A stretch of DNA of 43,900 nt, the filler included, from Jimgerdemannia flammicorona (lineage: Eukaryota): NCBI GenBank assembly GCA_003990765.1. It is 2 parts of 2 records of this genome, joined end to end, with 100 filler letters (N's around TTAATTAATTAA, not from the genome) between each part and the next. Parts side by side here need not be neighbours in the genome. Positions count along the whole stretch, not along the records: positions 22,005 to 43,900 come from RBNJ01001371.1; 1 more part is not named here. One strand, given 5' to 3'. Under the pieces are notes generated by a model that saw nothing but the letters and a program-made list of their open reading frames with translations, was not told the origin of the DNA and did no database searches. This document shows, piece after piece, positions 2,161 to 43,900 of the stretch. Position numbers and translations under genes: made by a program. How positions within the stretch are numbered: the first letter of the stretch is position 1; each line of letters begins with the position of its first letter.

Positions 2161-2196
<36 letters not shown>

Positions 2197-3710: not shown

Positions 3711-3714
3711 TAAG

Positions 3715-21765: not shown

Positions 21766-21815
21766 TTTTTTTTTTTTTTTTTTTTTTTTCCAAAAAAAAA
21801 CCAATTAATTTTTTT

Positions 21816-21904
<89 letters not shown>
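21766..21904. repeat. Long poly(T) tract abutting the gap (probably a minus-strand retroposon poly(A) tail)
   Basis: More than 100 T with a short interruption. The sequence after the gap is a LINE 3' end pointing into it. Confidence 0.6.
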
Positions 21905-22004
21905 NNNNNNNNNNNNNNNNNNNNNNNNNNNNNNNNNNNNNNNNNNNNTTAATTAATTAANNNNNNNNNNNNNNNNNNNNNNNNNNNNNNNNNNNNNNNN
22001 NNNN
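21905..22004. other. Artificial 100-bp assembly spacer N44-TTAATTAATTAA-N44
   Basis: Symmetric N runs around a 12-mer that has stops in all six frames, a common contig-joining linker. Confidence 0.95.
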
Positions 22005-23079: not shown

Positions 23080-25113
23080 TGTAAGAGGGTTACTTTTTGG
23101 GGTAACCGTTACGTAGTTCTGGAAGGGTTTTCTGGAAGTTCTGGATATTCTGGAAGATTGTTTTCTTATGGTCAAGATCAATTTTGTATGGAGTACGTCC
23201 TCTACGCTTATTGATTTCAAGATTGGGTTGACATCTCAACCAAAGTCCTTTTTTCGGACTAGTTCTGGATGTTCAGGATTTTCTGTATTTCAGGAAGTTC
23301 AAGAAACTAAGACCAGCTTAGTTGAATTGGCGTATCACTGCAGACAATACCCAATTAGGAAATTTCGTGACAGGGTTAGGAGTATGACCTAACAGGGAGC
23401 GGATTTACTTAAGAGTGGTTTGTGGGTTATGGAATAGGTTTATTTGCTATTCATGATATTGCTATACTAGGAGTATTTGGGTGAAGGGGTATTGTGGGGA
23501 AGTGCTCAGGAGTTGTGTTCAGATTGTTCAAGTCTGAGATTCCGAGGTCTGGGGGAGGGGGTATTTATACTAGTGAGGGGCTATCTGGACTATGCTGAAT
23601 ATGGATGTAGCACTAAGTGCCTTGCTGAGTCAGAATACAGTCACGTAGTACAAGTGTGATCTGATATGTCAAGAGATTGTCTGACTGCTGAGTCAGTTCA
23701 CAGTCACGTCGTACAAGGCTAATCTATCTATACTATGACTGCTAGACTATTTATAGGTTTAGGCACTATCTGGGTAGTCTTCGATGACATCACCATCGAT
23801 TGCATCATCTCTGATGAAGTAGTCATCTAGGAAGAGTGGTTTGCGGATTACTTCTTCTTGTTGGCTGAGGTAGTAATACATTGGGACTTCGTCTCCATCC
23901 CACAGGATAGCATTGTCTGTCTTGTAGGCTGGATAAGGTGTTGGTGGGCGAAGGATGGGTGTATTGTCTTCGCTTTCATTGGATTTGCTGTCTGCGTACC
24001 TTTTATAGGTTACAGCACTATGAGTCACGGGGTTGTAGTAAGCTGGCGGCTGTGGTTCATGTTGCTCATACTCAGGTGGTGGAGTGGTTGGTTCAATCTC
24101 GAGGGTTGTCTGGAGGTACAGGTTGTGTTCTCCAGTCTCTTCATTGTAGTTGAAGTAGTCAGGGGTGAATGCGGGTTAGTATTCGTGCCAGTGGTCATTG
24201 TCCCAATAAGTCTCGTATGCAGTTATGAACTGTTGCAAGTTCATCGGCAAGGTTGGCGGAGTGATCAGGGTTGGCAGGGATCCTTGGCTGGAGGTCATGT
24301 TGGTGTCAGAGGGGTCATTGTCTTCTGCTTCATCTTCGTCGAAGTTGATTATATCATAGACGTCCTTTATGGTGTATCTGACTTGAGGCATTTGCAGGAT
24401 ATGGTCATCAGGGTACGGGAAGGTTCTGTCTGTAGTTTCGACATACTCGAGGTACTTGTGGTTGAGTTCTTGTATCATGTCATCGATTTGGCCATAGGAC
24501 AGGGTAGCAACCATTTCGCTGGTAGTAACTCGGAGGCAGGGAATAAAGGTGTTGTACTCATAGAAGAGTTCTCGATGTTTGTGAGCGATGAGCTTCTGGT
24601 GTTGAGACATCTGGGTAATGTCTGTATCATGGTGGTGTTCGACCATGTCTTCCAGGAGGCGGCCGATCTGGTAGTAGCTTGAGATTTGTCCTATTCGGTG
24701 GGCCTCACTAAGTATATTCAGGGCATTCCATCGGGCTTCCACGAAGTAGAGGGGTGCCAGGCTATGGATATTCATGAGGGGCAGAGGGGGTGTGGCTCGG
24801 TTGACAATGGCATTCCAAATGTCAGTGTGGATGCGGTTGTAGATCTCAGTGGTCATGTTTGTGTGTTTGGAAGTTGTGGTTGTTGTTTGTTTTGGTTCTC
24901 TGATTCGACGCGTCTTGGTGCTCAGTATATATGCATTTGGTCCTGATTGGTAAGGTTCCATTTGTGTAGATCTTGTGTTCTGTGACTTTGTATTGACTCA
25001 GCTTTGTGTGCTGTGACTTCGGTTTGACTCAGCTTCATGATCAAGCAGATGATTTCCAGATTTGTTTGGAGGGTGACGTGTAATTTTGGTGGCTTGGAGG
25101 TTGTGCACTTACA
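23080..25113 (-). repeat. 3' LTR (2034 bp)
   Basis: Direct repeat of 31624-33657 at a constant offset of 8544. Preceded on the minus strand by the PPT. Confidence 0.97.
23759..24856 (-). pseudogene. LTR-encoded accessory ORF, 3' LTR copy (365 codons, one premature TAA at 24178-24176)
   Basis: ORFs 24176..24961 and 23759..24028 share one frame, and the stop is CAA (Gln) in the other LTR. The ATG at 24961 is absent from the other copy, so the shared start is Met 24856 (MTTEIYNRI). Confidence 0.8.
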
Positions 25114-25114
25114 A

Positions 25115-25127
25115 CTCTCCCCTTCTT
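25115..25127 (-). other. Polypurine tract
   Basis: AAGAAGGGGAGAG immediately before the TG of the 3' LTR. Confidence 0.9.
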
Positions 25128-25449
25128 AGCTTTTGATGTCCTCATTGGGGCCTTCTAATTTGTTCTAGTATTGTTACACTGTTTGGGAGGTCAAAAGTCC
25201 AGTAAGGTCCATTTTCTCAGAAAGTGGTATGCTTGTAGTACAGTTGCCTAACGTGTTGGATTCACATGTTAAAGGGTCATGTGTTCATTGCCATGCACCA
25301 GAAGTGATTCTGACGTCATTCACTGCTGGAGAATTTCCTCTAAGGAATCTTCTTAAATGTCTATGCCTCGTTTCCCACCAGTGGTATGGGGAGAATAGGC
25401 TTGCTTTCAGTTTTGCTATTTTTCCAGAGGATTGGTATTCTTGTCTTAT

Positions 25450-28400
25450 TTTGCTGGGTTCATGATTTGGTTTGTGATAGTTATAATGTTCAGGAGGGTA
25501 ATATATAGCATGTATGGATAGGTGCAGAGTATTTGGTTATAGTTGTTCAAAGAATCATATTCCTGAACTAAGTCGGTAGCATTCTGGAGATTGGTTTTGG
25601 GTTCCCAGGTTGCATCGTGGATTGGGTAACCTTTCCATTTGATAAGGTACTCAGGATGGTTCTTGTTGCCATGTTTGTTGAGGATTTGTTCAACTTTGTA
25701 TTCTTCTTGGTCATTTATAATGACAGGTGCAGGTGGTTTGGTAGTCCGATTTGAAAATAGCTCATCATCATTATCATTGTATCACTTGAGACATTGAACA
25801 TTAAAGACTGGGTGAATCTTAATGGTGTCCAGTAGCGCCAGTTTGTAGGAGGTTGGAGAGACTTGTGCGATGACTTCAAATGGTCCAATGAACTTGCTGT
25901 TCAGCTTTGTAGATGGTCTGTGCTTGAGGTTGTCAACTTGGTATCCTCTGATGTCTAGTAGAACTTTTTCTCCAATATCAAAAGTTTCTTCTTGGTGGTG
26001 TTGGTTAACATACTGTGACTGTTGTTCTTGAGCTCGTGATAAATTCTCAATTGCGATCTGGCTTAGATTGTGCATTCGGAGTAGGAATTCTTCAACTGCT
26101 TCAACTGTGGAGGGTTCTTCAGTGGTTTGGATAAGTGTCAAAGGGGTGTTCGGGTTTTGTCCAGTATTAACGAAGAATGGGGTCATTCCAAGAGAGGCTT
26201 GCTTGCTGTTGTTGTAGGCAAACTCGACTGCGGTGAGATGTTCATACCAATCATCCTGTCTGTAGAAGACATAGTTCCTTAGCATTTGTTCCAGAGTTTG
26301 GTTCATTCATTCGGTTTGGCCATCGGTTTCAGAGTGAAAGGCTGTGGATAGTGCAAGTTTTGTTCCAAGGTGCGCATGGAGGGCTTTCCAAAAGTGGCTG
26401 GTGAATTTCGGATCTTGGTCACTAACAATGATCTTGGGAAGACCATGATAGCAGAAGATGTTGTCAAACAAGAGTATGGCTATGTCTGGTGCTGTTGAAG
26501 TAGTGGTAGTAGGCACAAAGTAGGCTTGTTTGCTGAGGTAGTCCACAAAGACAACAATTGCATCTTTCTCGTTCTTGGTTCAGGGTAGTTGTACAATGAA
26601 GTCCATAGAGATTTGTTCCCAATTTGCGGATGGTACTGGAATAGGATGAAGTAAGCTGGGTTTTGCTAGTGTTGAAGACTTGTTTCGTTGGCAGGCATCA
26701 CAGGAAGTGATGTAGGTCTTGAGCTGATCTGCCATGTGGGGCCAATAGAAGTTTTGGGAGATAACTTCGTAACATTTATCAAATCCTAAATGTCCAGCTA
26801 TAGGGGCATCATGACATTCGAATAGGATAGTCCTTTGGAGGTCTCGGTTGTTTGGAACATACAATCTGTCCTTGTAGTAGATAGCATTGTCCTTGAGTTG
26901 GTATTGATTGTACTGGGTATGCTTGTTGGTATCATCATTGTTCAGGATTTCTTGGAGTGCTTGAGCTTCTTTATCATCTACACATGCTGCGATGATTTGT
27001 TCCATGATAGTGTTGGTAACCAAGGTCAGAGTTTGGATAACCTCTTCGATTGGTGGTCTGGAGATTGCATCGGCAACAATATTTTCCTTGCTAGGGCGGT
27101 ACTGGATTTCATAGTCAAAGTTGGTGAGGACTTTCATCCATCTAGCTTGCTTTCGAGAAAGAGTAGCCTGTGTCTTGATGTTGACTAATGACTTGTGGTC
27201 AGTCAATACAGTGAAGTGTGCTCCTTCTAGATATGGTCACCATTTGATCAGAGTGTCTACAATGGCTAGCATTTCCTTTTTGTGAGTTGTGTAGTTGATT
27301 TCGGCATCATTGAACTTGCGGGAGTGATAGGCCACAGGGTGTCCTTCTTGCATGAGCACTGCTCCAAGAGCTAGGTCAGAGGCATCAGTAGTGACTTCAT
27401 ATGGTAGGGCAGAATTTGCTGCTTGAAGTACTGGTGTGGTTATCAGGGCATCTTTCAGTGCTTGAAAGGCGGTATCTTGTTCGGGTCTCCAATTTACAAG
27501 ATTGTTGAAGTCTTTCTCTTGTTTCATGGTCCAGGGTTGTTCTTGTTTCTTGCTGTGCTTGGTCATTTGGGTGAGGGCAGTAGCAATTTTAGCAAAGTTG
27601 GCAACAAATCACCTGTAATAATTTGCTAATCCCAGGAATGACTGGAGGTCTTTCAGCTTCTTCAGTCTGGGCCAATCTTTGATTGCAGAGATTTTGCTGG
27701 GGTCCACTTTGATTCCTTTTGGAGTGATAATGTGTCCAAGGAATTGAATTTCTTTCAGGAGAAATTCGCACTTGCTGAGTTTTGCAAAGAGTCTGTTTTC
27801 ATGGAGTTTCAGTAGTACTAGTTCAAGGTGTTCAAGATGTTCTTCCAGGGTTTTGCTGAAGACTAGGATGTCATCAATGTAGACAACAACGAATTTGTCC
27901 AGGTATGGATGCAGAATGGTATTCATCAGTGTCTGGAAGGTTGCTGGAGCATTAGTTAAGCCGAAAGGCATAACCAGGAACTCAAAGTGTCCATAGCGAG
28001 TTCGGAAGGCTGTCTTGTAGATGTCTTCTTCTTTGATGGCAATTTGCCAGTAACCATTTCGCAGGTCAAAAGAGCTCATGAATTGTGAGTTGGTGAGCCT
28101 ATCGAATATTTCATCAATCCTCGGTAGTGGGCAACAGTTCTTGATGGTCTGCTCATTGAGATCATGGTAGTCAATACACATTTGCAGGTCTCCTCCTTTC
28201 TTGACAACAAAGAGGACTGGTGCACCATAGGGTGATATGCTAGGTCTGATGAATCCTTGTTCTAGGAGTTCATCGATTTCCTTCTTAAGTACATCAATTT
28301 CTCTTGGAGATATGTGGTAGATTGACTTGAAGGCTGGTTTGGCATCTGGGATAGTCTTGATAGCATGGTCTACTGCTCGTTTGGGTGGTAGGCCTTTCAG

Positions 28401-31400
28401 GAGTTTCTTTGGGAATATGTCTCAGAATTTCTGGAGTAGTGGTCTGATATGGCTGTCAACTTTGGAAAAATCTTCTTCAGAGTTCTTGGGTTCTCCTTTG
28501 GATGGTCGGATGGAGATGGCGAAGAGAGGGCATTTCTTGGCCAATTTCTTGAGTTGTAGCTTGTTGATGTGGGTGATCTTTGGTTCAGGGTCACTAGAGT
28601 TGAGTGGGTCCTTTTCGCCTTGTAGTTTGAAGTTGTGGCGTCCTTTCTTGATGGTCAGAGAATGGTTTACCCAATCGATCATGGGGTTCTCTTGTTTCAA
28701 CCATGGAGTTCCAAGGATGATTTCATTGTCAGGAAGTGGTACGATTTGGAGGGTAACATGTACTCGGTAGTTGCCAATTCGGAAGGGTAGATTGCAGACT
28801 TCTTTGCTAATAACATGTGAGGTTCCATCAGCTGTAGCAACTGCTTGAGTTTGCTGTACTGGGGAGGTGAAGACCTTGAGTCTGTTTGCTGTCTCTTCAT
28901 TAATGAAGTTGCCTGAGGCACCACTGTCTATCATAATCTTGACAGGTGCTCTGTTGACAAAAGCTTTAAGGGTGAGCAATTTGTCTGATCCAATTGTGGT
29001 GATTTCGGTTGTAGGAGCTTTCCTTCTATTGGTTCTTCTTTGAGCCAGTTCATTGACACAAGAGAAGCAATCATCGATCATTTGGGAAGAGTACATTCCA
29101 ATGCTATGAGGGCATCGGTCACTTGGTACATATCCATCTTCGATCTTCTTGTAGAATTGTTCTTCTTTGCTCATAGTAGGTTGGGCTGGGGCCTTGTTTG
29201 ATGAGCCAAATCCTTTGGATCCTCGGATGGTGGGCAGTAGTTCAGGGACTTCCTTGACTGTCAGGGTTGACTCAATTTTTTCGAATAGGATCTGGGCGAT
29301 GCAGAAACCAATAGGGATCTTGAAGGGTGTCCAACTGTGGTTTCGAATAAGGAAAATAATTTCGCCTGTATAATCCTCGTCAATGACTCCTCCTTCTACT
29401 GAGAGTCCTTTCAATGCTAGGCTGCTGCGACAGCATATTCTTCCAACATGTCCTTCAGGGATTTGGATACTGATTCCTGTGTAGACTTGTTTGACTTCTC
29501 AGTTAGAAACTGTAGCTTCTTTGGCTGCATATAGGTCATATCCAGCTGCTTTTTGACTTCCTTTGGTTGGGGCCTTAGCAGTTTGTCTTAACTTGACAAA
29601 GTCTAGTGTTCTGGTGGTCAGGTTGTTGAGGTGGTGAAGAGTGGTAACAGTTGCTCATGTTGCTGTTCGGGGTTTTCAGTTGGAGCAGGCACTGGCCATA
29701 TGTCCTGTCTTTCGGCAGTAGAAGCATGCTCTGCTTCTTTGAAGTTCATTTCTTTCACCTTCAGTAAGTTTCTTGAAGGTACTTGGCTGGGTGGGTTCAT
29801 GATTTCTGGGTGTCCAAGAGGTGGATGTGGAGGGAGCTCGAGATGTTTTATGCTTGGGTTCTTCTTTCTTGGTCCAAGTCTTTTCCTTGTTGTTGAATTG
29901 TCTTCGGGGCAGAATTGGTCTGGCTGTTAGGATTCGCTTGACCATGGTCTTGATTCTTGCCAGGCACTATTGTTGGTGATCACAACCAACTGGGCAGCCT
30001 TGTTCTCGGATTTTTCTAGTAAGCCATTCAGGCAGTGCATCAAATAAATGGTCTGCTCTTGTACCATTTCGTGCTTCATCATTGGCAATACAACAGTGTT
30101 CAGGAGTGACTCGAGTTTTGTACAGAAGGTTTCGAATTCTTCTTTGCCATGTACATCAAATTTGAGGTTATGGAGTTTTACTCGAGATTCAGCAATCATG
30201 GTTTCGCTGCGATATTGAGCAATCATGAGTTGTTTGAGTCCAGGGGCTGTAGGATGGGCTCCATATCCTGGGGCATTGTTTGCTACATTCTGAGCAACTA
30301 CTGCAGGTCAGATATCCCATGTGAGGGGTTTTTCAGGAAGGGTTCGCCACCATTCTTTGGCAGGTCCTTGGAAGAATGTAACAACTCAGCAGACATAGGC
30401 TGTAGTTGTAGCAAAGAGTTGTTCCAGGGTGTGGTCTTGATTGTTTGTCAGAACATGGTCAGCAACTCGCTCATTAGTCCATTGATTGGCTTCGAAGTTG
30501 GTGTCAACTACACTAATGAAGCTTTGGACTTCTTGTGCAGTACCATTGAAGGTAGGTAGGCTCAGATTTTTGGTAGGTCAGATCTGTTCAGCTAAGGCAG
30601 TGATAGTTGCTGCCATTATAGCTACTTGGGCTGTGAGGTCCAGAATCTGTTGGTTCGCCATGTTGATTGCTGGAGGCGGTTGGACTGCTGGTAGTGGTGT
30701 TACTGGTACTACTTGAGGTACTGGTGCAGAGTGTGATGGGGTCCTTTGGGTCTGTGTAAGTTGCTGGAGTAGTAGTTGTGGATCTGGAGTGAGGGCTTGA
30801 TAGATAGCTATTTGTTGCTGTGTAGGTGTATTCTGTCCTGATGGACATGTGTCTCCTTCAGTAGTGTATCCGGGATCGAATTCGGTGAGATACTCCTCCT
30901 CTTCTTTAGTTTGGTCCCCGTGTAATTGGGTTTGCTCGGCGTCAAAGTAGACAGAATCAGTTGTATATCTGATTTCAGATGGACTTAATTCAAAGTCAAG
31001 TTCAGGTTCAGTATTGGTTTCAGATTCAGGTAGGGTTGTAGCAGGGCCTGCTTCAGATTCGGGGTCAGGTAGTTGATGAAGGGTTTCTCTTGCCTCTTCC
31101 TTAAGAATATGGCAGGCCTTGCTGTTCTGGAATCTGTAGTATAAGGCAGTCTTGGTCCTGGTATGGTGATAGTCGGTAGAGTTGAGCCACTTGGCTACAG
31201 AGGCTTGGGCTTCGTGAGGAACTAAGGCTAGGAAGACTGCTGCTGGTTGTCCTAGGTCGCTCGGATTTGTGGAGCTGACAAAACTCTTATTGAGAAGAGT
31301 AAAGAAGGCTTCAATAAGACCTTCTTCATCTTGACTTGCTGGGTGTAGTGCAAGGAGTTCGGTGAATAGGGTTTCACCTATTTGCTGATTTAACTGAAGT

Positions 31401-31516
31401 ATTTCTTTCTTGGAATGAAGTTTGTCCCACTTATTGCAGGTGTGGAGGTCAAATTGTCCTTGTACGTCAGGTTCAATTCTCTCCAGATTGTCAGATAGTT
31501 CAGAATAAATTCCAGT
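25450..31516 (-). pseudogene. gag-dUTPase-pol polyprotein of the chromovirus, inactivated mostly by CGA>TGA stops
   Basis: CFYCRKTGHMASAC knuckle (~29730), dUTPase (~29606-29199), protease IDSGA (~28930), RT YIDD (~27875), RNase H TDAS/KEMLAI, integrase HHCC, SMDFI, SDQD and TDGQTE, and chromodomain EYKVEQIL...YLIKWKGY...TWEP (~25710-25555). Everything from the knuckle onward is in one frame. One frameshift lies in gag near 29940. Confidence 0.93.
29199..29606 (-). other. dut: Trimeric dUTPase domain between Gag and protease
   Basis: All five motifs are present: AAGYDL, RSSLA, GVIDEDYTGEI, IAQI and RGSKGFGSS. One in-frame TGA at ~29500. Confidence 0.93.
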
Positions 31517-31608
31517 TCAGAGGTTGGGCTTTATACCAACTTGTAGGAATTCTTGGAAGGGTTTGTAGTGGGGTGAGGAAGCATCTTGAAGTGGAATTGG
31601 ATTGTAAA

Positions 31609-31620
31609 CCGCTGCTACCA
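31609..31620 (-). other. Primer binding site, initiator tRNA-Met type
   Basis: TGGTAGCAGCGG starts 3 nt inside the 5' LTR boundary. TGGTAGC is the pattern complementary to the 3' ends of fungal and animal tRNAi-Met. Confidence 0.8.
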
Positions 31621-32105
31621 AGTTGTAAGAGGGTTACTTTTTGGGGTAACCATTACGTAGTTCTGGAAGGGTTTTCTGGAAGTTCTGGATATTCTGGAAG
31701 ACCGTTTTCTTATGGTCAAGATCAATTTCGTATGGAGTACGTCCTCTACGCTTATTGATTTCAAGATTGAGTTGACGTCTCAACCAAAGTCCTTTTTTTG
31801 GACTAGTTCTGGATGTTCAGGATTTTCCGTATTTCAGGAAGTTCAAGAAACTAAGACCAGCTTAGTTGAATTGGCGTATCGCTGCAGACAATACCCAATT
31901 AGGAAATTTCGTGACAGGGTTAGGAGTAGGACCTAACAGGAAGCGGATTTACTTAAGAGTGGTTTGTGGGTTATGGAATAGGTTTATTTGTTATTCATGA
32001 TATTGCTATACTAGAAGTATTTGTGTGAAGGGGTATTGTGGGGAAGTGCTCAGGAGTTGTGTTCGGATTGTTCAAGTCTGAGATTCCGAGGTCTGGGGGA
32101 GGGGG

Positions 32106-32239
32106 TATTTATACTAGTGAGGGGCTATCTGGACTATGCTGAATATGGATGTAGCACTAAGTGCCTTACTGAGTCAGAATGCAGTCACATAGTACAAGTG
32201 TGATCTGATATGTCAAGAGATTGTCTAACTGCTGAGTCA
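32106..32239 (-). promoter_or_regulatory. Putative main LTR promoter: two TGASTCA (AP-1/Gcn4-type) sites + TATA
   Basis: TGAGTCA at 32233-32239 and 32170-32176 and TATAAATA at 32113-32106, all conserved in the other LTR. Confidence 0.6.
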
Positions 32240-32302
32240 GTTCACAGTCACGTCGTACAAGGCTAATCTATCTATACTATGACTGCTAGACTATTTATAG
32301 AT

Positions 32303-33400
32303 TTAGGTACTATCTGGGTAGTCTTCGATGACATCACCATTGATTGCATCATCTCTGATACAGTAGTCGTCTAGGAAGAGTGGTTTGCGGATTACTTCTC
32401 CTTGTTGGCTGAGGTAGTAATACATTGGGACTTCATCTCTATCCCACAGGATAGCATCGTCTGTCTCGTAGGCTGGATAAGATGTTGGTGGGCGAAGGAT
32501 GAGTGTATTGTCTTCACTTTCATCGAATTCGCTATCTGTATAACTTCTATAGGTTACAGCACTATGAGTCACGGGGTTGTAGTAAGCTGGCGGCTGTGGT
32601 TCATGTCGCTCGTACTCAGGTGGTAGAGTGGTTGGTTCAATCTTGAGGGTTGTCTGGAGGTACAGGTTGTGTTCTCCGGTCTCTTCATTGTAGTTGAAGT
32701 AGTCGGGGGTGAATGCGGGTTGGTATTCGTGCCAGTGGTCATTGTCCCAATAAGTCTCATATGCAGTTATGAACTGTTGCAAGTTCATCGGCAAGGTTGG
32801 CGGAGTGATCAGGGTTGGCAGAGATCCTTGGCTAGAGGTCATGTTGGTGTCAGAGGGGTCATTGTCTTCTGCTTCATCTTCGTCGAAGTTGATTATATCA
32901 TTGACATCCTTCATGGCATATCCGACTTGAGGCATTTGCAGGATATGGTCATCAGGGTACGGGAAGGTTCTGTCTGTGGTTTCGACATACTCGAGGTACT
33001 TGTGGTTGAGTTCTTGTATCATGTCATCGATTTGGCCATAGGACAGGGTAGCAACCATTTCGCTGGTAGTAACTCGGAAGCAGGGAATAAAGGTGTTGTA
33101 CTCATAGAAGAGTTCTCGATGTTTGCGAGCGATGAGCTTCTGGTGTTGAGACATCTGGGTAATGTCTGTATCATGGTGGTGTTTGACCATGTCTTCCAGG
33201 AGGCGGCCGATCTGGTAGTAGCTTGAGATTTGTCCGATTCGGTGGACCTTGCTAAGCATGTTCAGGGCGTTCCATCAGGCTTCCACGAAGTAGAGGGGTG
33301 CCAGGCTATGGATATTCATGAGGGACAGAGGGGGTGTGGCTCGGTTGACAATGGCATTCCAAATGTCAGCGCAGATGCGGTTGTAGATCTCAGTGGTCAT
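32303..33400 (-). pseudogene. LTR-encoded accessory ORF, 5' LTR copy (365 codons, one premature TGA at 33277-33275)
   Basis: ORF 32303..33259 extends in frame to Met 33400 across a TGA that is CGA (Arg) in the other LTR. Confidence 0.8.
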
Positions 33401-33469
33401 GTTTGTGTGTTTGGAAGTTGTGGTTGTTGTTTGTTTTGGTTCTCTGATTCAACGCATCTTGGTGCTCGG

Positions 33470-33575
33470 TATATATGCATTTGGTCCTGATTGGTAAGGT
33501 TCTGTTTGTGTAGATCTTGTGTTCCGTGACTTCATATTGACTCAGCTTTGTGCGCTGTGACTTCAGTTTGACTCA
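33470..33575 (-). promoter_or_regulatory. Putative second promoter driving the LTR ORF
   Basis: TGACTCA at 33569-33575 and 33538-33544, CCAAT at 33494-33490 and TATATA at 33475-33470, with the ATG at 33400. All are present in both LTRs. Confidence 0.45.
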
Positions 33576-36500
33576 GCTTCGTGATCAAGCAGGTGATTTC
33601 CAGATTTGTTCGGAGGGTGACGTGTAATTTTGGTGGCTTGGAGGTTGTGCGCTTACACTAATCCTCCCCTCCTAGTTCCGCCATTCGATAACCCCACCAG
33701 CCCCGAAGTACCTTCAGCTGCCTTCTAAAGTCCACCAGCCCCAGCCCTCCATCTGCCTTTGGTGTTACCATTATCTCCCAACTAATCTGTGATCTCCTTC
33801 TCTGTCATAGCCATCCTTCGACCACCTTCTTCAGTTTCTGTACCACCCACCCTAGAAAGTCCAGGTGATACCTCAAGTACCACAGCTTCGGCAACCAATA
33901 TACATTCAAGACTACAATCCTCCCAACCAAGGAGAATCCCCTCCCAGACCAGCCCACCAAGGCATTCTCCCACTTTTGTATCAATCCACACCACCACTCT
34001 TTTGGCAACACCATCTCATATACTGAGAGCCAGATATCCAAATATCAAACTGCCTCCCCAGAGCCAACTAAATGTCCAAAATGTCCATGCTCCCCCAAGC
34101 CTGCTCCAAGCTCCATGGTCTCGCACTTGCCCCAGTTCAATTTCACCCCTGCCAGCATCAAATACTGTCCTACCCCTTCCTGCAAGCTCACCACATCTTC
34201 CACACTGCCTAACTCTACCACCATATCATCTGCAAATGCCCCCAGCTTCCAGACCACCTCCCCCATCTTCAACCCAGTGAGCCTCCCCTTCAGCCATGCC
34301 AACAATGGCTCCAAGATAAAATATAAAGCAGGGGTGAGAGAGGATCCCCCTGTGGCACTCCTTGCTCTAAGGAAAACTCTGGGCCACTCCACCCATTCAT
34401 CAGCACTGCAGCCCAGCAACCTCGCACCAGACCCATCAGTTTTTGAGCCTCCCCCATGCCAAACCCGGCTTTCCATAGGACTGCCTCCAAGTAGTTCCAC
34501 CTCACCCTGTCATAAGCCTTTTCCTGGTCCAAAAACACCATTCTTCCATCTACTTGCTGGCTTCTACAACCTTCCAAAACATTTTGCACTCAGGCAGTGC
34601 TGTCTCGAATCTGTCTCCCCTTCACAAACCCTCGCTGTTCCTCACCAACCAATCTGCCAATCCATTGTTGCATTCTCCCTGCCAGAATCTTGGAGACCAA
34701 CTTCCTATCCACATTCAGTAACATGATGGGCCTCCAGTTCCGCCACACACATCTATCCCCTTTCTCCTTGTAGAGCAGAGAGACTAGTCCCAAGGAGCCA
34801 TTGCCTATCCAGCAGCCTTCCCCCAGTGTAAAGTTTGCCATTTCCACGAGCTATGCCCCAAACTTAGTTTGAAACTCCTTCCAGAACTCCCAGGGCAGTC
34901 CATCCTCCCCTGGTGACGAGCCCACCTGCACTTTCCTCAGAACCTCCAACACCTCTTCAAGGGTCACCCAACCCATTACAGTCCCACCAATGCAGGCTCT
35001 GCCACCACTGGCCAGCTGCCAACCAAATTGTTGTTATCCTCCAGCATCGCCTCTCCCTCTACTAGCCCTCCATCATCCTGCCATAGGGAGCACTATCGAC
35101 CAGAGATCTCCCCAAGCATATTGGCAATATCTGTCACCTCTGTTCCATCCTCTCGTAACACCGAAGCCCAGCTGTGCCGCACTCTCCTAGCCTTCAAGAT
35201 TCCAGATAAGTATTTGGTGGATCATTTCCCTTCTTCCAACCGCTTAGCTCACAATCTTGCCAGCAACCCATCCACCACCCTATCTTCTGCTGCCTTCAAA
35301 TCTGACTGCAACTCTGCTACCTCCTTGATCAATAGGGAGTGTCACTCCCCTGAGTTGTTCTCTCCTTCCAGAAGTTTTAGCCGCCAGTGTGGCCCCCACT
35401 CCACTCTTCTTTCTCTATCCTTCTGCTCCCTTCCAGCTACCTCTCCTACATCATACCAGTATGCACCTGCTAGATGTTTAAATTTCCCCCACCACTGTGC
35501 TATTGACTGGCCACTGTTCTTCCACCATGCTACTTCCTGTCTTGCAATTTTAACAAACTTTTCTCACTCCACCTGTCTCTAGAGTAGTGCCACATTAAGT
35601 CGCCATCTGCCTCTGCCACCACTGGTTGCCTGGAATCTCCCACACACCTACACACCCCAGTGATCCGACCAGGGACACCACCATACCTCTGATGAATCCA
35701 AAATATTACCCCAGCATTCTGCTACTAGGATCCAGTCAATCCTCGTCCTAACCAAATTCTCACCGATTGGATGCCACCTAGTAAATGGCCCTAACTTCTC
35801 ACCTTGACATTGTCATACTCCATCAACCAGTCCCATTTCCTTCTCAGCTTGAAGCCATCGCGAGTGCCCAGTGGATACTGCCACACCGACTCCACCATCT
35901 GACCTATCTAATGTCCTATCATGCACTATATTGAAGTCCCCTCCCAGAATGTCCAGCTCAATCTCATCTCGGCCTCCCCAATCCAGCCAACCTTCCACCC
36001 ATTTGTTTTGCTCCCTGCCAACTACTGGTATATACACAGAGCCAACCACCAATCCATCGCCAGCTCCTCCTTTCAATCTCCCCCAAACCAATCGATATCT
36101 CAACCTCCTTCAGCTCTCCTCTCTCCAAGCCAACCAAAATGGCCATCTGCTCATTCCACCCCATAATACCATACCATTCCTTGCCCCACTCCTCATAATC
36201 TTGCTCCCCATAGGCCCAAATGTCCTGCAGAAATATTGCATCATACTTCCTGTTCTTCAACCACCGAAACAAATGCCTTTGCTTCACTCCATCATGCAAA
36301 CCATTGACATTTAGTGATAATATATGTAGACTGTTCATCATCATGAATATAAATGTTAAAGCTCAGCTGGGGCCACCACCACCTTTTCGGCCCTACCACA
36401 GATTATCGCCTTCCATTCCTCACAGATAGCCCTCCAGATGTGGGCTCTATTCACACCACTACAGAAGGCATCCACTCACTCCGATACCATCTTCCTGATA

Positions 36501-39500
36501 TCAGCCATATGGTCCTCATCAACCTCATAACCTTCATCATCCAGAAGCACTGCCACCATTGCTGTTACCAACTTCAGCCCCTGCAATGCCACATTGTGAA
36601 ACCCTTGCCAGGCCTCCTGTGATCCATTAAATACATCCACTTCCTTGATATCCTCCTCCACAAGTTCCTCAAGCACTGTCTGATACATACCAGTCATCTG
36701 CTGTCATCACCATGGGCCCAGGAGTGGCTGGCCTTGGGGTCCTGCTCAGCTCCTGCAGTATCTCTCTATCCGCCGACACATCAGAAGCCACATCCACAGG
36801 TCATCCTCCCCAGTGCCTTTCTCCAGCCGAACTACTTTGCCTGCTTCTGGGCATTCCCAATGAACATTTGCCACTCTGGCCATGCGAACATTCTCCAACT
36901 GGGTCTCAGGTACCACCTCGATAATCTCCTCAAAGCCCCCTGTATTCGCCTCCTCCTTATCAGCCCACTTCCCCTTTACTGGTGCATGAGTAGAGTTCTT
37001 CACTCCTACTAGTTGCGAAAAGGACACCTCAGCCATCTCCACCTCTTCCATCTGATTTTTGGTCAACTCTTCTCTTTCCTTTTCCTTCTTTTCTGAGCCC
37101 TGAGGACTGTCTACAGGTGCTCCCAGTTTGCCCTTCACCACCTCTTCCTCCTCCCATCTGTCGGGATCCAGATCCAGTCCTTGGTGAACTCCTCCCATCT
37201 CCTCTTCCGCAATTCCTTCACAGCCTCTCTCTCTTCAAGGGCAACTAGCAATTCCTCCTCCTCCTGTTCAGAACCCTTCCTTCTCCACACTTTGCACTCC
37301 TGCCCTCTGACACGAATCACTTCTGGCCAGTCCCTCCATTGCCCTGTAGCCTCCTTGCCCTCCAGTCTCACCATCACCTCGCAATTGCCATTCCTCAGCT
37401 TGGTCCCCTCCCAAAACATGAATCCAAAGTCAACCATCTCGCCAAATGCCCCCAGTGCCTCCACCACCATTCCTTTGGTCTCCTGTCTCCCCAATGTTGG
37501 CAGCCCTTCAACCACCCAACACACTGCCTGCGGGTCCCACCTCAGGCACCTTGCTATGCCCACCTTGATGCTCTTGACTACCAGTCCTTTCTCCAGGGCC
37601 TTCACCATCTCCTCCTCCTCAACAAATCCTATCTCAACTGCCTCCGCTGATGGGATGAACTTCAGTGACTCTGCCCCTGCAATCTCCTCCCCTACTAGCT
37701 GTAAGACCTCTCTAGCAGACATCTCCAGTTCCAAAAAATTTGCAGAAATGGCCCATGTTGATACTGACTTGTGAAGAAGGGACACACCACCAGTTCACTA
37801 GAACCTGCTGCCATCATCACCTTCTTCTTGCTCTCCAACACTCCAGCAGTCACCCCAGCCACTGGTCCAGCCCCAGGAATTCCAGTCCCAGCCACACCAC
37901 TTCCGGACCCCTGGCCCCTGGCAGGCACCTGACCAGTCACCTGACCAGTCACCTGGCTGGTCACCTGACTCCTACCCCTGTCAACACTATGTCCCCCCTG
38001 CCCTGCCCCCATGGGCCTAGTAGCTGCCCTCCTGCCCCCCATCACCATGTGCCAACTCTCAATGCCAGCCTGCCTCCCCAGACCACCTGCTCTTCTAGCC
38101 TCTACACCAGCCCCTAGACCTCCACCAGCCCCAACCGTCACCACAAAACTTTTCAGGAGACCCAGACCAGGCCTCCTTCTCTCCAAATGCTCAGAGCTTG
38201 ATGAACCCTTGGTTGCCATCTGACAAAAACTCCACCGAAACAGATGAGACTTGTTGTATCTGTAGCTTGACTCCTGCTGCACCTTGTACACTAGAATAGA
38301 TGATGGGAAAACTTGAAAATGTGTTGCTTGTCATGAAAAGATGTCAGTGTGGCTTAGCTTTCTCTGAATGGTTCAAGCAAAAGGAGTCTGGCCTACAGCA
38401 CCAATCCTTGTGCACCCCAATCTACAGAAGCCATTCATCTTGTATACAGATGCTTCTAAAAATGGCCTCAGGGCAGTATAGTCCCAAGAAGGACCTGATC
38501 AACAGCACCATGTGATAGCTTATGCAAGCAGGGCTACCAACCAGCAGCAGATGAACTATGGTAGCACCAAACTGGAATGCCTTGCAGTCATATGGGCAGT
38601 TACCCTGTTCAAGCATTATCTCATTGGAAAGAGGTTCACCCTGATCACAGAACATACAGCCCTCAAATAGCTATTCAACCACAAGGAACCTGCCAGAATT
38701 CTAGCCTGATGGATCCTTATCCTTCAGGATTATAAAATCACCATCATTCACAGAGCAGGAAAAACCCATCACAATGTTGATGTACTTTTCCACCAGCCCC
38801 AATGAATCAGAGGAAGGGTGTCCTGAGGAACCACACCCTAAAGGAAGCTCCTCAGACTATCAAAGCACAAGAAGATCTCATCCGAAAAGAATATCAGAAA
38901 GCCCACCAAGGACAGACAAGCATAGAAGACAGGATTCAAAAACAATATCAACATTGGCCTCATCTCAGAACTCAAGTCTGAGACATTATTCAGAAATGTG
39001 ACATCTGCCAGAAGTACTAAGGAAAGAAGAACTATCAAGCCCCTCTGCAACCGATTCCCCCACTCACTCACATCTTTCAAAGATGGGGAGTAGATGTAAT
39101 TGGACCCCTACCAGTTATACCAAGAAGAAATAAATACATCCATGTATTTGTAGAGCATCTGACTAAGTGGCCTGAGGCTTTTCCAATGGAAATCGCAGAT
39201 GCTCTAACTATTGTAGGCCTCCTCTATGGACTCACACTCAGATATGGACCCCCAGAAGAACTTATCTCTGACTGAGGCACAGAATTCATCAATAACATAA
39301 TCCCAAGTTATGCCCAAATTCACAAGATCTACCTCAAAAGGACCACATCATACCACCCCCAGACCAATGGCATGACAGAAAGAATGAACCAGACCATCAA
39401 GAAAGGACTTGCCCAAGTCAACCCTACTAATTGGGACCTTTGCTTACCTGAGATCCTATGGGAAATTCAGAACACCCCTGCCACATCCACCAAACAAAAG

Positions 39501-39864
39501 CCATTCGAAATGATGTTTGCCAAGAGAACCAGAACTGCTGACCATGAGAATCTCAGAGACCTCCTCAAGAAGGCAGAACAGTTACGAAATCAAGCCCAAG
39601 GACAGATTATCAAAGCCCAGGAAAGACAAAAGAAGTACTATAACCAAAACCAGAAGGATCAGGAAATCAAGATTGGAGATCAAGTCCTAGTTTGGAGAAG
39701 CATAATTGGGACAAACTTTGCCACCAAACTAGAACCAAAATGAGAAGGACCTTATCTTGTACACAACATCAGAGGAACCAGCATCTATTTAAGAAGCATG
39801 GATGGATGAACCCTGAGAACACCAGTATACATCAATTGCCTCAAGATATACTTCTCCTCACACC

Positions 39865-40388
39865 ATGAACCAGAGAATTGACAACTGCCTCCAAACTCTT
39901 GTTCTCAGGTCCCTCCAAGCCCTACCAGTTCCCCTGCCTCAGTTCTGGGAACCCAATGGAACATATTTCAGCAAATCTGAGTTCATCAAGAGAACCTCAC
40001 TTTGGCTGAGAGGCTACTCCAGGTCCACCAGCTGCAGGCATATTATGCAATTGGAGAACAGTTGCAGAATCTTCCTCTCCCAGACCTAGCCTATGTCCAA
40101 AACACCACTGACCTGAACAGAAGGAATACTACTGCTGCAGACAGACTATACACCATATATAAACGAAATCCTTCTGCCTTAATCCAGGCCCAGTTTTCCC
40201 TGAATGATCTCCAAAGGATGACACTACCCACCTACCTCAGCATTATTCACCAAGTGGAGATCCTATTTCCTGAGGAAGAAGAAGAGCCCCTGGAATGGAG
40301 TGACCATAGCTCAGATGATGATGACAGAACAGATATAGATGCAGAAGCTGCTTATGCCTATTGGGATGATGACCGAAGAATAGTCTAG
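39865..40388 (+). pseudogene. Extra ORF between integrase and PPT (~170 aa, one frameshift near 39975-39995)
   Basis: The N-terminal part of 39865..40089 joins 40002..40388. It aligns by eye with the chromovirus LTR ORF and ends in an acidic tail. Confidence 0.7.
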
Positions 40389-40415
40389 GACAGACTACCC
40401 TTCAGTGGGGGCTGA

Positions 40416-41790
40416 TGTAACAGACCAAAACGTACCACCTGAATTATAACTTAGCCAGATGACATGAACAATTAGCATACTTACTCAGCATACTTCCAGT
40501 GTATCATAGTTACCTATGTCCGCCATACTTATAATTAGCCAAGATACTAGATCAGGATTATTTACCTGTGTCCTGAGGACACACTCATGTCCTGCGGACA
40601 CACTCATGTCCTGCAGACACACTCATGTCCTGCAGACACACTCATGTCCTGTGAACACACCTGTACCTAGAGGACACACCCAAATATTACCAGAGATAGC
40701 AAATCTATAGTTAGCCACATAGTAACCAGATAGGAACCAACTTGTATAAATTACCCCAGAGACAAGAGTGAATAAACCTCAGTCCAAAAAGTCCAAAATT
40801 GAAGCAAAAGACAAGTCTGCCTACCACACTTTGAGAGGAACTCTACAGCCACTGTTAGGAGATTGTGAGCTTATTTCCCCTTTCCACTCTGGTCCACTTT
40901 CTGATACAAAGCTGATTACCCGCCAAAGTTCAAGGAAGAACTTCACTGCCATTTGAGTAGTCCACCACTTATGGAATAAGCCGCCATTTCCAAGTTATTC
41001 TCCACCTTCCCAAGAAAGCCACCTTGCTCAAGTCAGTTTCTGATGCAACTTTGCAGTGATTTGTCATGCAAATGAAGCCATTCTTTGATGTAACTTTGCC
41101 AAGAGACCCTTTCCCAAAGAATGCCACCAGTTGTTTGTATTCCCAATTGAAGCCACTGATTAATAAGAATCTGCACCATCCAAGTTATTTCCCAGAAGCC
41201 TGCCGATTCAGGAGAATCTGCATCACCCACTGCCTTTTGAGTTATTCACCATATTTCCAGTTGAAGCCACCGATCCAAGAAGAATCTGTGCCACATATTC
41301 CCAGAAGAGCCTGATTCATGCCTTCTGAGTTATCTGTTGTTTCCAGTGAGCCCAGTAAGGAGAACCCATGCCATACATTCCCAGTGAGCCAAATCGAGCT
41401 ATCTGCCAGAAATCACCTACTTTTGGAAATTGTCATGCTATACAAGGATCATCATGCAGAGATCATCGCACTACACAAAGATTGTTGCACCAAGACCGTC
41501 ACTCAGAAATCGCATACTTTTGGAAATTGCCTTGCTACACAAAATTGTACCATTCCCAGTTGACCCAAGAAGGAAGTCCATTCACACACAAATCGCCACT
41601 ACACCCAGAGAACCGTCCCAGTAAGGAAACCGCTTGCAGATATCCAGATTGGCTATTATACCACTAAACACCAAGGACCTCAGGAATCTTAGAACATTTT
41701 GTTGCTTTTTGACAAAGTAACTAGGAGCTCAAGCCAAACTACATCAACCCACAACCTTATAATTTGCCTCCATTGAGCTGGTACATTACA
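40416..41790 (+). repeat. 3' LTR (~1375 bp) of the second Gypsy
   Basis: Starts TGTAA after the PPT and ends TTACA where an unrelated RT relic begins. TATAAA at 40745-40750 and AATAAA at 40771-40776. No partner LTR in the window, so the right end is inferred. Confidence 0.7.
40569..40660 (+). repeat. 19-bp tandem repeat (TGTCCTGCAGACACACTCA-like), almost 5 copies, in LTR U3
   Basis: Units start at 40569, 40588, 40607, 40626 and 40645. Confidence 0.9.
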
Positions 41791-42040
41791 ATATTATTAG
41801 GTCTTTCTTGAGACTATCTAGATACTACTGCAGATTTATTAAAAGTTACTCTAGTATTGCTATACCCATGACCAAATTGTTGAAGGTTAGTAATCCATTT
41901 CAATAGACCCCTGCCATTCCAAACTCCTGAAGACAAAATTGATAACTGTGCTCTATATAATCCAGATCTAGCTCTGTAGTTTACAGTAACTACAGATGCA
42001 TCTGGATATATAATTGGTATAGTACTATCTCAACATATAT
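41791..42040 (+). mobile_element. Old Gypsy RT-RNase H connection relic
   Basis: Decayed RSFLxLxxYYxRFIKxYSSIAxPMTKLL and FTVTTDAS motifs. Confidence 0.7.
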
Positions 42041-42069
42041 ATTTGTTTTGCTATAGCTCTAATTATAAT

Positions 42070-43840
42070 AGGAATAGTATCTTTGGCCTATATATTATCT
42101 TCTGATCTATCATCTATTAGGTTTATTCATGGGTTGGGTCTGGGATCATTTCTATTTTCAAATTTTTCTTCTTCTGTAGTGGATTTCTCACTGCTGATAT
42201 ACTCTTCCTGTATGGTGACCTTTTTCTTTTTCTTTGACTACTCATTACTGGTCACCTTGATTCTGTACTTCTTTTCCCTATAGTCGAATTTGAGTATCTG
42301 TTAGTCAATGTCAATGATTGCATTCATTTTCTACATTCAGTTGATATCAAGGATCATATCATAGATGATAGCTTTGGTGACAACAGCTTCTGAATAGAAT
42401 ATTGAATATGTCCTAAAGAGATGGTGATATTTCATACTTCTTCAAGGAGTTGAGTTCAGGATCTATCTGCTACTATAATGCTAAGATTGGATGGTCCATC
42501 AATGTACCACTGAAGGGTATCTAGAAATTATTTAGCAATTATACAGATAGCTGCTCCTGTGTCAATAAGAATCTTTATCTTTTGTCCTCCAATATCTATA
42601 TACAGATATGTGCTGATATATCTTTCTGCAGCCTAAATAGTAGTTGGGGCTAGTTCTTGTTGTGAGATTTGGACTCAGCCATTACTAGACCTTATGGTTC
42701 TCAACAGTTTGTTTTGGACTTCAGTAGATATCAGTTGTCGAAAATACAAGAGGGGGACTTCTATTTTGGCTTCTTGAATCTTTGCCAGGCTTAGATATCT
42801 CTGGACATAGTCTTTGAGATATACTTCTTAGGCTTTGGAGCAAGAGGCTTCTGTTCTTCTTGCTCTATTTCTTTATCCTCTGAGGGTAGTTTATTTATTT
42901 CAGAAACAAAAGATGAGAGAGACTAGAGAGATGTTTCCACCTGCCCTTTTTCATACTCTTCAACTTTTTCTTAAATAATTCTTCTACTAGTGTTTCTGGA
43001 TGGTCTTCCTATAGATCTCTTCTATTCTCTGTAGAGTAGACTATCTTCTTAGGGATAACTTTGGCTGGGTATAGATCTGGGTTACTATAATCTTTACTGT
43101 TATTTTCTTCTTCAAAGCCTTCAACTAGGTGGGCTTTAGTCTTTTTGTACTGGGTTTCATTCTTTTGATTTAGAGGTTCTGAGTCTCTTTGATCACTTCT
43201 TCTATTATCACATTCTGTAGCATAGTGTCCAAATTGTCTATAGTAGAAGTACTGAACTTGAGCTCTATCTTGAACAGGATACCTTCTTTCTTCTTATGAC
43301 TAGTAGGTCCTATTATCTTTAGATAGGTAATCTTGATTTCTTTATTGTATATATCCTCTGTTATTCTGTGATTAGCTCCAATTTTCATATGTATAAGATT
43401 TTTCATATGCCCAGACAATTAGTCTAACTTAGAATTGAGGTCTTGGATTTTATTTCTTTTTTTCTTCTATTTCTTGACTGGCTTTTCTTCTTTGGATCTT
43501 CCTTATTCTTAGAGGAGTTCTTACAGAGTCTTAACTAAGAGGTCTTCCTTATCATCTTTTTTATTTTAATTACTTTAGATAGTTTTTTATTTGATATCAA
43601 AAAATCCTTAGACTATATCCACTTGTTCTTCAGGTTTTCTGATATCTAAAGTGCAAACATACTGGGTAATGTTCAGGGGAATTCCATTCATAAGATTATT
43701 GGGCCTCTAATATCTTGATTGATAGCATTAAATTTATCTATATATATTCTCTTTTAAATTTTAGTTAAGAATGCTCTGGATGATTCTCTGAGATTTATCT
43801 TTATCTCTATAATGAATTCTTGAGCCTTATAGTAGATTTT
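42070..43840 (-). mobile_element. Hypermutated LTR-retroelement gag-protease relic
   Basis: Minus-strand KIKILIDTGAAICII (~42580-42540) and YDMILDIN (decayed ILGxDW) downstream. AT-rich and full of stops. Confidence 0.7.
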
Positions 43841-43900
43841 ATTTCTTTTTGTTTTTTTTTTTTTTTTTTTTTTTTTTTTATTTTTTTTTTTTTTTTTTTT
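43841..43900. repeat. Poly(T) tract at the window end
   Basis: Near-homopolymer T run, probably another minus-strand poly(A) tail or a contig end. Confidence 0.5.

Follow-up and report, generated by a model that had tools for sequence, protein, structure and literature searches.

An accessory gene behind the integrase of a Gypsy retrotransposon of Jimgerdemannia flammicorona and a possible distant relative inside the long terminal repeats of a second Gypsy element

Introduction

The fungus Jimgerdemannia flammicorona carries, in a stretch of 43,900 nucleotides (nt) joined from two parts of its genome (GenBank assembly GCA_003990765.1; the whole stretch is referred to here as the window), two divergent Ty3/Gypsy retrotransposons, each of which holds an extra open reading frame (ORF) in the sense direction. 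In the element without a chromodomain (element B), positions 39865-40388 are the decayed copy of a genuine accessory gene, named here ORF3, which lies between the integrase and the polypurine tract (PPT). In the second, a complete chromodomain element (element A), a frame of 365 codons, named here the LTR ORF, lies inside both long terminal repeats (LTRs), 5' of a consensus TATA box. A preliminary description of the window had placed the two frames in these same slots and had proposed that they represent one accessory protein family, kept by divergent lineages and relocated from one slot to the other. Taking the sequence similarity together with the shared context, the balance tips slightly towards their being true but very distant homologues. 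The broader reading, according to which ORF3 is a genuine gene, the LTR ORF is its distant homologue and both products are intracellular adaptors or regulators, stands at even chances.

ORF3, an accessory gene of a Gypsy lineage without a chromodomain

The features of element B on which this section relies are the following.

38395-39881, plus strand: pol remnant of element B, with RNase H and integrase (RT_RNaseH, 3e-19; weak rve_3 match; tblastx match to element A)
39865-40388, plus strand: degenerate copy of ORF3 of element B, about 172 amino acids (aa) when intact (reading frames and alignment to intact relatives)
40404-41750, plus strand: purine run (AGTGGGGG at 40404-40411) and inferred 3' LTR of element B, from 40416

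Element B is truncated at its 5' side, where it adjoins a long interspersed nuclear element (LINE), and its last 287 pol codons contain three in-frame stops. The natural stop of pol is found at 39879-39881, directly after the SH3-like integrase end '...LKIYF', with no chromodomain. ORF3 opens with the ATG at 39865 and so shares the last 17 nt of pol. Since the second LTR of element B is not in the window, the limits of the LTR are inferred ones: its start is placed at TGTAACAG (position 40416), while the 3' end, near 41750, is not fixed. This LTR holds TATAAAT at 40745-40751 and AATAAA at 40771-40776. Within its inferred U3 region, 5' of the TATA box, Tandem Repeats Finder detects a 19-nt tandem repeat, TGTCCTGCGGACACACTCA, in 4.8 copies with 93% matches (40569-40660), which could be an enhancer-like array. 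About 75 nt before the ORF3 ATG there is a TATTTAA (39786-39792), which may serve as the promoter of a separate message.

The preliminary description had read 39865-40388 as a single ORF, and this has to be corrected. The first frame meets stops after about 90 codons, and the later segments are read in a frame that opens at 39981; according to the alignment to intact relatives, a deletion of 1 nt lies at about 39976-39981. The window copy therefore lacks the intact frame of its family and is a pseudogene copy. It ends in a TAG at 40386-40388, and all contigs that cover position 40387 in the runs X1, X2, X5 and X6 (soil metagenomes and 'organism A') have a G there and not an A, so this stop is peculiar to the window copy.

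The copy belongs to an orphan family with public relatives. In a word-based protein search, the piece encoded by 39981-40385 matches four public proteins, numbered here P0002-P0005, with E values from 7.5e-54 to 7.5e-20 and 70-76% identity. A HMMER search with the family profile hidden Markov model (HMM) over 1.84 billion representatives added five more relatives (P0006-P0010), and a cluster look-up four further members, which brings the total from 9 to 13 public proteins, two of them intact at 171-172 aa. A sixth HMMER match, P0011, is a repetitive protein of 671 aa and is regarded as spurious. The relatives are 40-81% identical to P0003 in the family alignment, and the window piece scores 241.6 bits on the family HMM, in which that piece is itself included. 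Members remain open throughout their 171-172 aa (two of them) or over a predicted 144 aa at 56-80% mutual identity, with conserved columns interspersed along the alignment. The sequence M[TN]QRID stands at the same point in all eight relatives that cover the N-terminus; it begins with the first residue in seven of them, a count that partly reflects the start choice of gene callers. In P0006, 41 open codons precede this Met. They read the integrase C-terminus out of frame (39644-39868 in the window), and as in the window this reading lies in a different frame from ORF3, the junction between pol and ORF3 must differ by an indel between copies.

The ORF3 product consists of a Q/L-rich N-terminal domain (N-domain) of about 135 aa, predicted to be all-helical and with an isoelectric point (pI) of 9.1-9.6, followed by an acidic tail with a pI of 4.1. 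The tails are 36-37 aa long and hold 15-18 Asp plus Glu, no Lys or Arg and 3-4 Trp, Tyr or Phe residues. Three of the four sequences that reach the C-terminal end finish in ...AY.[YH]WDDD. Taken together, 39865-40388 is what remains, in this copy, of a real accessory gene that begins within the end of pol and stops shortly before the PPT.

The LTR ORF in the putative U3 of element A

Element A lies on the minus strand and its relevant features are as follows.

23071-33657, minus strand: element A, complete chromodomain Ty3/Gypsy element (LTR pair, target-site duplication, primer-binding site, PPT, Pfam domains)
33470-33575, minus strand: start of U3 of element A, with a 21-nt direct repeat containing two TGAGTCA sites, and ATATATA
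32303-33400, minus strand: LTR ORF, 5' LTR copy, 365 codons; sole defect an in-frame TGA at 33277-33275 (codon 42; CGA in the other copy)
31983-32113, minus strand: consensus core promoter and poly(A) signal of the LTR (TATAAAT at 32113-32107, AATAAA at 31988-31983)
23759-24856, minus strand: LTR ORF, 3' LTR copy; sole defect an in-frame TAA at 24178-24176 (codon 227; CAA in the other copy)

The LTRs of element A (5' LTR at 31613-33657 and 3' LTR at 23071-25113) are 2045 bp long and 95.6% identical. The element has TG..CA ends and is flanked by a 5-bp target-site duplication, ATTAG. The primer-binding site after the 5' LTR is TGGTAGCAGCGG, and the PPT that precedes the 3' LTR is AAGAAGGGGAGAG. 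In the interior, Pfam recognizes the reverse transcriptase (RT; RVT_1, 5e-34), the SH3_Tf2-1 integrase end and a chromodomain (Chromo, PF00385, 1.3e-16). Element A thus has the chromodomain at the integrase C-terminus that characterizes chromoviruses, and element B does not; that only one of the two elements carries it had been stated in the preliminary description.

The LTR ORF is a sense frame in both LTRs, with its ATGs at 33400 and 24856. It starts 257 nt inside the LTR and spans LTR positions 258-1355, and within it the two copies differ by no indel. Since each LTR copy carries one nonsense change, and at a different site, the frame was open when element A was inserted. The peptide strings that had been quoted for the two frames are all present: those for the post-integrase frame come from 39865-40388 on the plus strand, and those for the LTR frame from both minus-strand LTR copies, MTTEIYNRIHTD... 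from the 3' copy and ...LIARKHRELF from the 5' copy.

The frame is assigned, putatively, to U3 because TATAAAT (beginning at LTR position 1545) and AATAAA (at 1670) both lie 3' of it and the TATA region matches the LTR of element B. As in the sag gene of mouse mammary tumour virus (MMTV), the ORF lies within the direct repeat, in the sense direction, and 5' of the TATA box and the poly(A) signal. At the start of U3, TGAGTCA is found at 33575-33569 and 33544-33538, within the 21-nt direct repeat, and ATATATA at 33476-33470, about 70 nt 5' of the LTR ORF ATG. We take TGAGTCA to be a candidate site of the AP-1/Gcn4 consensus type, and the repeat and the ATATATA may possibly act as a separate promoter for the LTR ORF. 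Additional TGACTCA sites occur between the stop of the LTR ORF and the TATA box.

The two LTRs of element A differ by 89 substitutions, 82 of which are transitions, 44 of these at CpG. The change CGA to TGA, which interrupts the 5' copy of the ORF, is of the CpG type, and CAA to TAA, in the 3' copy, is a C-to-T change outside CpG. The same transition bias is seen in the aligned metagenome contigs, and the bias in both data sets suggests deamination of methylated cytosine in the host.

Only one public relative of the LTR ORF was found in the word-based protein search, the independent P0001 (128 aa, 92% identity), which ends at a contig edge, and for this reason the LTR-ORF profile is shallow. 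Protein searches with residues 1-140 gave no further relatives; neither did scans of metagenome contigs, nor a scan of viral contigs with the LTR-ORF query (A2). The predicted protein has a helical N-domain of about 140 aa (pI 5.7-6.2), followed by a tail of 223 aa with a pI of 4.1 that contains 45 Asp plus Glu, 31 Trp, Tyr or Phe and 26 Pro. This tail holds two Trp-acidic motifs, TYWDND and ILWD[GR]D, and, in a disordered region of both copies, the strings PPEY (residue 260) and PPAY (residue 270), each a PPxY motif of the late-domain or Rsp5/Nedd4-adaptor type; P0002 and P0003 lack them.

Similarity between ORF3 and the LTR ORF

Both frames are extra genes of elements that are clearly divergent, as had been described. 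The pol pieces of A and B share 28-43% amino-acid identity in tblastx. The nucleotide comparison of the LTR of A with the region of ORF3 and the LTR of B returns a sole match of 40 nt at the TATA box (77.5%, E 0.04), which bears out that the LTRs are dissimilar, and it shows no trace of a relic PPT.

At the protein level, the HMM of the ORF3 family gives 7.8-10.0 bits on the LTR ORF, in a colinear alignment that pairs model positions 2-102 with residues 2-102 of the protein and has two small gaps. Of 5000 full shuffles, 4, 7 and 4 score as high; so do 3 of 4000 when residues are shuffled inside windows of 10 aa, 3 of 4000 with windows of 20 aa, and 4 of 4000 when blocks of 7 aa change their order. 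Reversed sequences score 1-2 bits. A Smith-Waterman alignment, with an X at the break in the frame, contains an ungapped block of 48 residues with a score of 59, which 10 of 1000 shuffles reach at full length and 0 of 1000 when the N-terminal parts are used.

In the reciprocal direction, the HMM built from the LTR ORF places nine of nine ORF3 proteins in a common register, shifted by one residue, with 0.7-9.7 bits. The highest values fall on the most divergent ORF3 members, namely P0007, whose 9.7 bits are equalled by 2 of 4000 shuffles, and P0008, with 8.5 bits. Among the 102 stop-to-stop ORFs of at least 100 aa in the window, the LTR ORF is the best non-self match of the ORF3 HMM (8.5 bits), and the two are reciprocal best non-self matches, narrowly. 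The tails contribute a second point of contact: the motif (Y)WD[DN]D is colinear in both, and the pair AYWDDD/TYWDND is the best BLASTP match between pieces of the two proteins (15.8 bits, E 0.36). When a loose-gap alignment chains this tail motif as well, 0-28 of 2000 segment-wise shuffles equal its score, according to which member is compared.

The individual correspondences that had been aligned by eye fared unevenly. GTYF against PLYF is not a feature of the family, as all eight ORF3 relatives that cover this point differ from it (NTLQ or NALQ in five, P-containing strings in three). The motif YYxIG is indeed seen in the pair, while its first Tyr is His or Phe in four of nine aligned relatives. 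The profile comparison and the shuffling that the preliminary description had called for point in two directions, with HMM scores of 7.8-10 bits that few shuffles reach on one side and a low hhalign probability, given below, on the other.

Predicted structures and shared design

AlphaFold models were obtained for both proteins, with a low mean predicted local distance difference test (pLDDT) of 49.8 for ORF3 and 38.4 for the LTR ORF, and with tails below 50. In these low-confidence models, ORF3 has helices at residues 2-18, 34-69 (after a proline-rich loop), 86-101, 103-109, 113-117 and 121-134, and the LTR ORF at 3-18, 27-54 and 61-73 (after a loop), 85-101, 105-109, 113-116 and 121-141. The secondary-structure strings of the same models agree over 75% of positions at offset 0, which ranks second among 140 circular shifts. 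The structural check proposed earlier therefore yields two all-helical predictions with similar helix limits, at pLDDT values too low for the folds to be compared. Foldseek against the PDB finds nothing at E ≤0.001, and the best matches (E 1.2 and 0.81 for the two models) were dismissed as meaningless given the low pLDDT.

Sequence searches in general databases are equally silent for both proteins. Pfam gives no match at E up to 0.1 and nothing credible up to 5; the isolated single-member matches to LST1 (0.062) and Peptidase_C21 (0.2) were taken as noise. The PDB, searched by sequence, returns only unrelated proteins at E 0.03 or worse, and in the ESM Atlas the best match of P0003 (0.87) is below the usable level and the LTR ORF has no usable one.

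Neither protein contains a hydrophobic or transmembrane segment, the maximum 19-aa Kyte-Doolittle mean being 0.86 for the LTR ORF and 0.94 for P0003, and neither shows the signal peptide or transmembrane anchor expected of an env product. The term 'env-like slot', used before for ORF3, is thus right as to position and wrong if it is taken to mean membrane character. On the other hand, the D/E-rich tails with aromatic residues reported for both proteins are confirmed by composition and by their pI of 4.1, and both tails are net-acidic, aromatic-rich and, in the models, disordered, which is the character of acidic activation domains. According to the models, ORF3 and the LTR ORF would share one build: a helical N-terminal part of about 135-140 aa and an acidic, aromatic-rich tail.

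Homology weighed against other explanations

The claim that both frames belong to the same family is upheld as far as a weak, colinear similarity goes, with a p that we estimate from the sequence comparisons at roughly 1e-3 to 1e-2 per comparison; it is not established as a family assignment, given the shallow profile of the LTR ORF and hhalign probabilities of 3-6%. Its chief competitor, to which a substantial minority share of credence is due, is that ORF3 and the LTR ORF are unrelated, lineage-specific orphan genes whose shared build, YYxIG and WD[DN]D have arisen by chance or convergence. A number of observations weigh against kinship and can be read in this sense. BLASTP of the pieces does not find the similarity of the N-domains. 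hhalign returns P 0.017 and a probability of 2.7% over 18 columns, and with a deeper profile P 0.0067 and 5.7% over 27 columns, around YYxIG. When blocks of 12 aa are reordered, 57 of 4000 shuffles reach the score of the ORF3 HMM; 45 of 4000 shuffles do as well as P0003 on the LTR-ORF HMM; and an unrelated decoy ORF of the window obtains 7.1 bits on the ORF3 HMM, against 8.5 for the LTR ORF. Neither the YF nor the first Tyr of the YYxIG motif is conserved in the ORF3 family, and the search with the ORF3 profile over 1.84 billion representatives contains no relative of the LTR ORF at E ≤0.001. Moreover, the pair was picked by eye, which carries a hidden cost of multiple comparison, the tests draw on one and the same pair of sequence families and lack independence, and shuffling may flatter the similarity, as it does not preserve helical periodicity. 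The low pLDDT and the lack of a Foldseek match leave the folds not comparable. What opposes the notion of unrelated orphans is an empirical p of about 1e-3 under five shuffle schemes, an alignment that begins at residue 2 on either side and holds the same register in nine of nine members, the reciprocal best match among 102 ORFs, the colinear second motif in the tails and the similar limits of the predicted helices.

The remaining explanations concern the nature of the frames rather than their kinship. ORF3 might be a C-terminal extension of the integrase, produced by programmed frameshifting and acting as a targeting module in place of the chromodomain. The 17-nt overlap between its ATG and pol would fit this, as would the lack of a chromodomain in B against its presence in A, and the 41 open codons 5' of the Met in P0006. 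Nevertheless, M[TN]QRID occurs at the same point in eight of eight relatives, the leader of P0006 is an out-of-frame reading of the integrase and not the integrase itself, no slippery site is shown (no search aimed at one was made), and the putative homologue in A is parted from pol by the PPT and 257 nt of LTR, so that this explanation is improbable. Even less credit can be given to the view that the ORFs are non-functional, their frames being open by chance in decaying repeats: the copies of both ORFs in the window are broken, but the LTR frame extends over 365 codons with one different nonsense change per LTR copy, and ORF3 members are open over their full length at 56-80% mutual identity with conserved columns interspersed. 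An env-type membrane or fusion protein, finally, is hardly conceivable for ORF3. Only its position between pol and the PPT speaks for it, against a maximum Kyte-Doolittle mean of 0.94, a length of 172 aa, the predicted all-helical structure with an acidic disordered tail and the absence of any Pfam match.

A possible mechanism and a route between the two slots

The difference between the slots of ORF3 and the LTR ORF may be smaller than it appears. In the genomic RNA (R-U5-gag-pol-U3-R) both genes would occupy the same place, between pol and R, and the sole structural difference would be whether plus-strand priming at the PPT occurs after the gene, as in B, or before it, as in A. Priming before the gene puts it in U3, and reverse transcription then copies it into both LTRs. 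A shift of the PPT from downstream to upstream of the gene would thus suffice to make a U3 gene out of one in the env slot, and the slot difference, if real, would be mechanistically trivial.

Expression could proceed through a subgenomic message from the TATA-like element located about 70-75 nt 5' of each ATG, or through a spliced message. In the protein, the folded N-domain would serve to bind a target, and short linear motifs in the disordered acidic-aromatic tail would bring in a host machine. Judging from this design, it is tentatively proposed, with somewhat less than even confidence, that both proteins belong to the general class of non-enzymatic intracellular adaptors or regulators. 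A narrower version, in which the tail is an acidic activation domain and the protein transactivates its own LTR as the foamy-virus protein Tas does, seems rather unlikely by itself and is put forward by analogy. Other options of the same class would be the recruitment of a ligase of the Rsp5/Nedd4 type via PPxY (in the LTR ORF only) or of another binder of Trp-acidic motifs. Two observations speak against this scheme: neither N-domain is strongly basic (its pI is 9.1-9.6 for ORF3, 5.7-6.2 for the LTR ORF), for which reason DNA binding is not favoured, and PPxY is confined to the LTR ORF.

The fullest scenario, which we consider doubtful, would be that an ancestral accessory gene was kept by deeply divergent Gypsy lineages and that in one of them it crossed the PPT into U3 and gained promoter elements of its own, the two TGAGTCA sites and a TATA-like box. 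Every LTR, solo LTRs left by recombination included, would then amount to a complete gene whose product acts in trans to serve or police the whole element family, much as with sag or nef but in an LTR retrotransposon of a soil eukaryote.

Genomic surroundings

Element A is inserted in a LINE with an APE-type endonuclease and an RT, on the minus strand, which is split by it into 22100-23070 and 33658-38330 and borders on element B where the 5' side of the latter is truncated; an RT fragment of this LINE is recognized at 34290-34589 (RVT_1, 1.9e-07). A second, diverged LINE copy, with an Exo_endo_phos endonuclease and an RT, lies at 876-3794, and a poly-T run with a gap of Ns at about 21676-21960 may be a LINE tail. 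On the other side, adjoining the LTR end of element B, the AT-rich region 41763-43900 shows by eye short fragments of Gypsy-like pol and zinc-knuckle gag in both orientations, and a Pfam search of this region gives no match at E ≤0.001. It is probably an older, heavily decayed element.

Thousands of short contigs from soil-metagenome runs and from two 'organism A' runs are 85-99% like both elements (window positions 23000-42000; 11260 contigs for X1), and in X1 the summed depth of element A is about 3-9 times that of element B. This abundance indicates that both element families are present in high copy number in a soil organism. The first part of the window holds, in addition, a direct repeat of about 830 nt (4605-5434 against 5844-6673, 78% identity) with proline/serine-rich open frames on both strands, and host-like genes on the minus strand at 15122-21247, namely a short-chain dehydrogenase fragment (adh_short, 6.7e-15) and a large Ion_trans protein (4.5e-06) split over the ORFs 17820-19733 and 19660-21069.

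Comparison with known systems

Extra genes of LTR retrotransposons are the raw material of retroviral accessory and regulatory genes. To our knowledge, few examples are described that do not come from animals or plants, and a gene within an LTR is a great rarity. Should ORF3 and the LTR ORF be true homologues, they would show that a shift of the plus-strand priming site is enough to carry a gene from the env slot to U3 or back, and its retention at about 30-40% pol identity would argue for a function important to the element, such as transcriptional activation, recruitment of host factors or counter-silencing. Should they be unrelated, the window nonetheless yields a pair of orphan retroelement proteins of common design, a helical domain with an acidic-aromatic, motif-bearing tail.

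The closest parallel for the LTR ORF is sag, the superantigen gene of MMTV, a sense ORF that lies wholly in U3 of a long LTR and is therefore found in both LTRs and at the 3' end of the RNA. The LTR ORF is likewise a sense coding ORF inside U3 and present in both LTRs. In contrast, Sag is a type II membrane glycoprotein of a vertebrate betaretrovirus, while the LTR ORF has no hydrophobic segment; in Pfam, protein and PDB sequence searches the latter shows no detectable relative outside its own family. The nef gene of primate lentiviruses is a 3' accessory gene that overlaps the PPT and U3 of the 3' LTR. By straddling the boundary between the internal region and U3, it represents the stage one would expect midway in the passage of a gene from the env slot to the LTR. 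Unlike nef, each of the ORFs of the window lies cleanly on one side of the PPT, and there is no evidence of kinship with nef by sequence or fold. The tas/bel1 gene of foamy viruses encodes a small 3' accessory transactivator with an acidic activation region, which has its own message and acts on the promoters of the element. The likeness of ORF3 and the LTR ORF to Tas is a functional analogy only, and it provides the favoured working model.

Among retrotransposons, the abstract of a study on bdelloid rotifers describes types of ORF3, located downstream of pol, that recur within one genome in LTR retrotransposons of divergent lineages (Rodriguez, Kenefick and Arkhipova 2017, PMC5408684). As in the case presented here, the same type of extra ORF is found there across divergent lineages, in what amounts to a modular sharing of genes. 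The rotifer ORF3s encode recognizable enzymes (GDSL esterase, DEDDy exonuclease) or env-like proteins, with strong homology, whereas here there is an orphan family with weak kinship, and the abstract reports none of them inside an LTR (PMC5408684). In fungi, the Boty-like Gypsy element of Botrytis cinerea carries brtn, an additional antisense gene of unknown function (Zhao et al. 2011, cited in PMC8365987). To judge from that description, brtn is likewise an extra gene in a fungal Gypsy element, and it differs in being antisense, as both ORFs of the window are sense. The U3 treated in PMC10787394 is variable, shorter than 200 bp and devoid of an ORF, and has no bearing on the present case. In the part of the literature covered, no description of a protein-coding ORF in U3 of a fungal or other non-retroviral LTR retrotransposon was found. 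Compared with all these systems, what is new here is an orphan ORF3 family with a possible second branch borne by the LTR.

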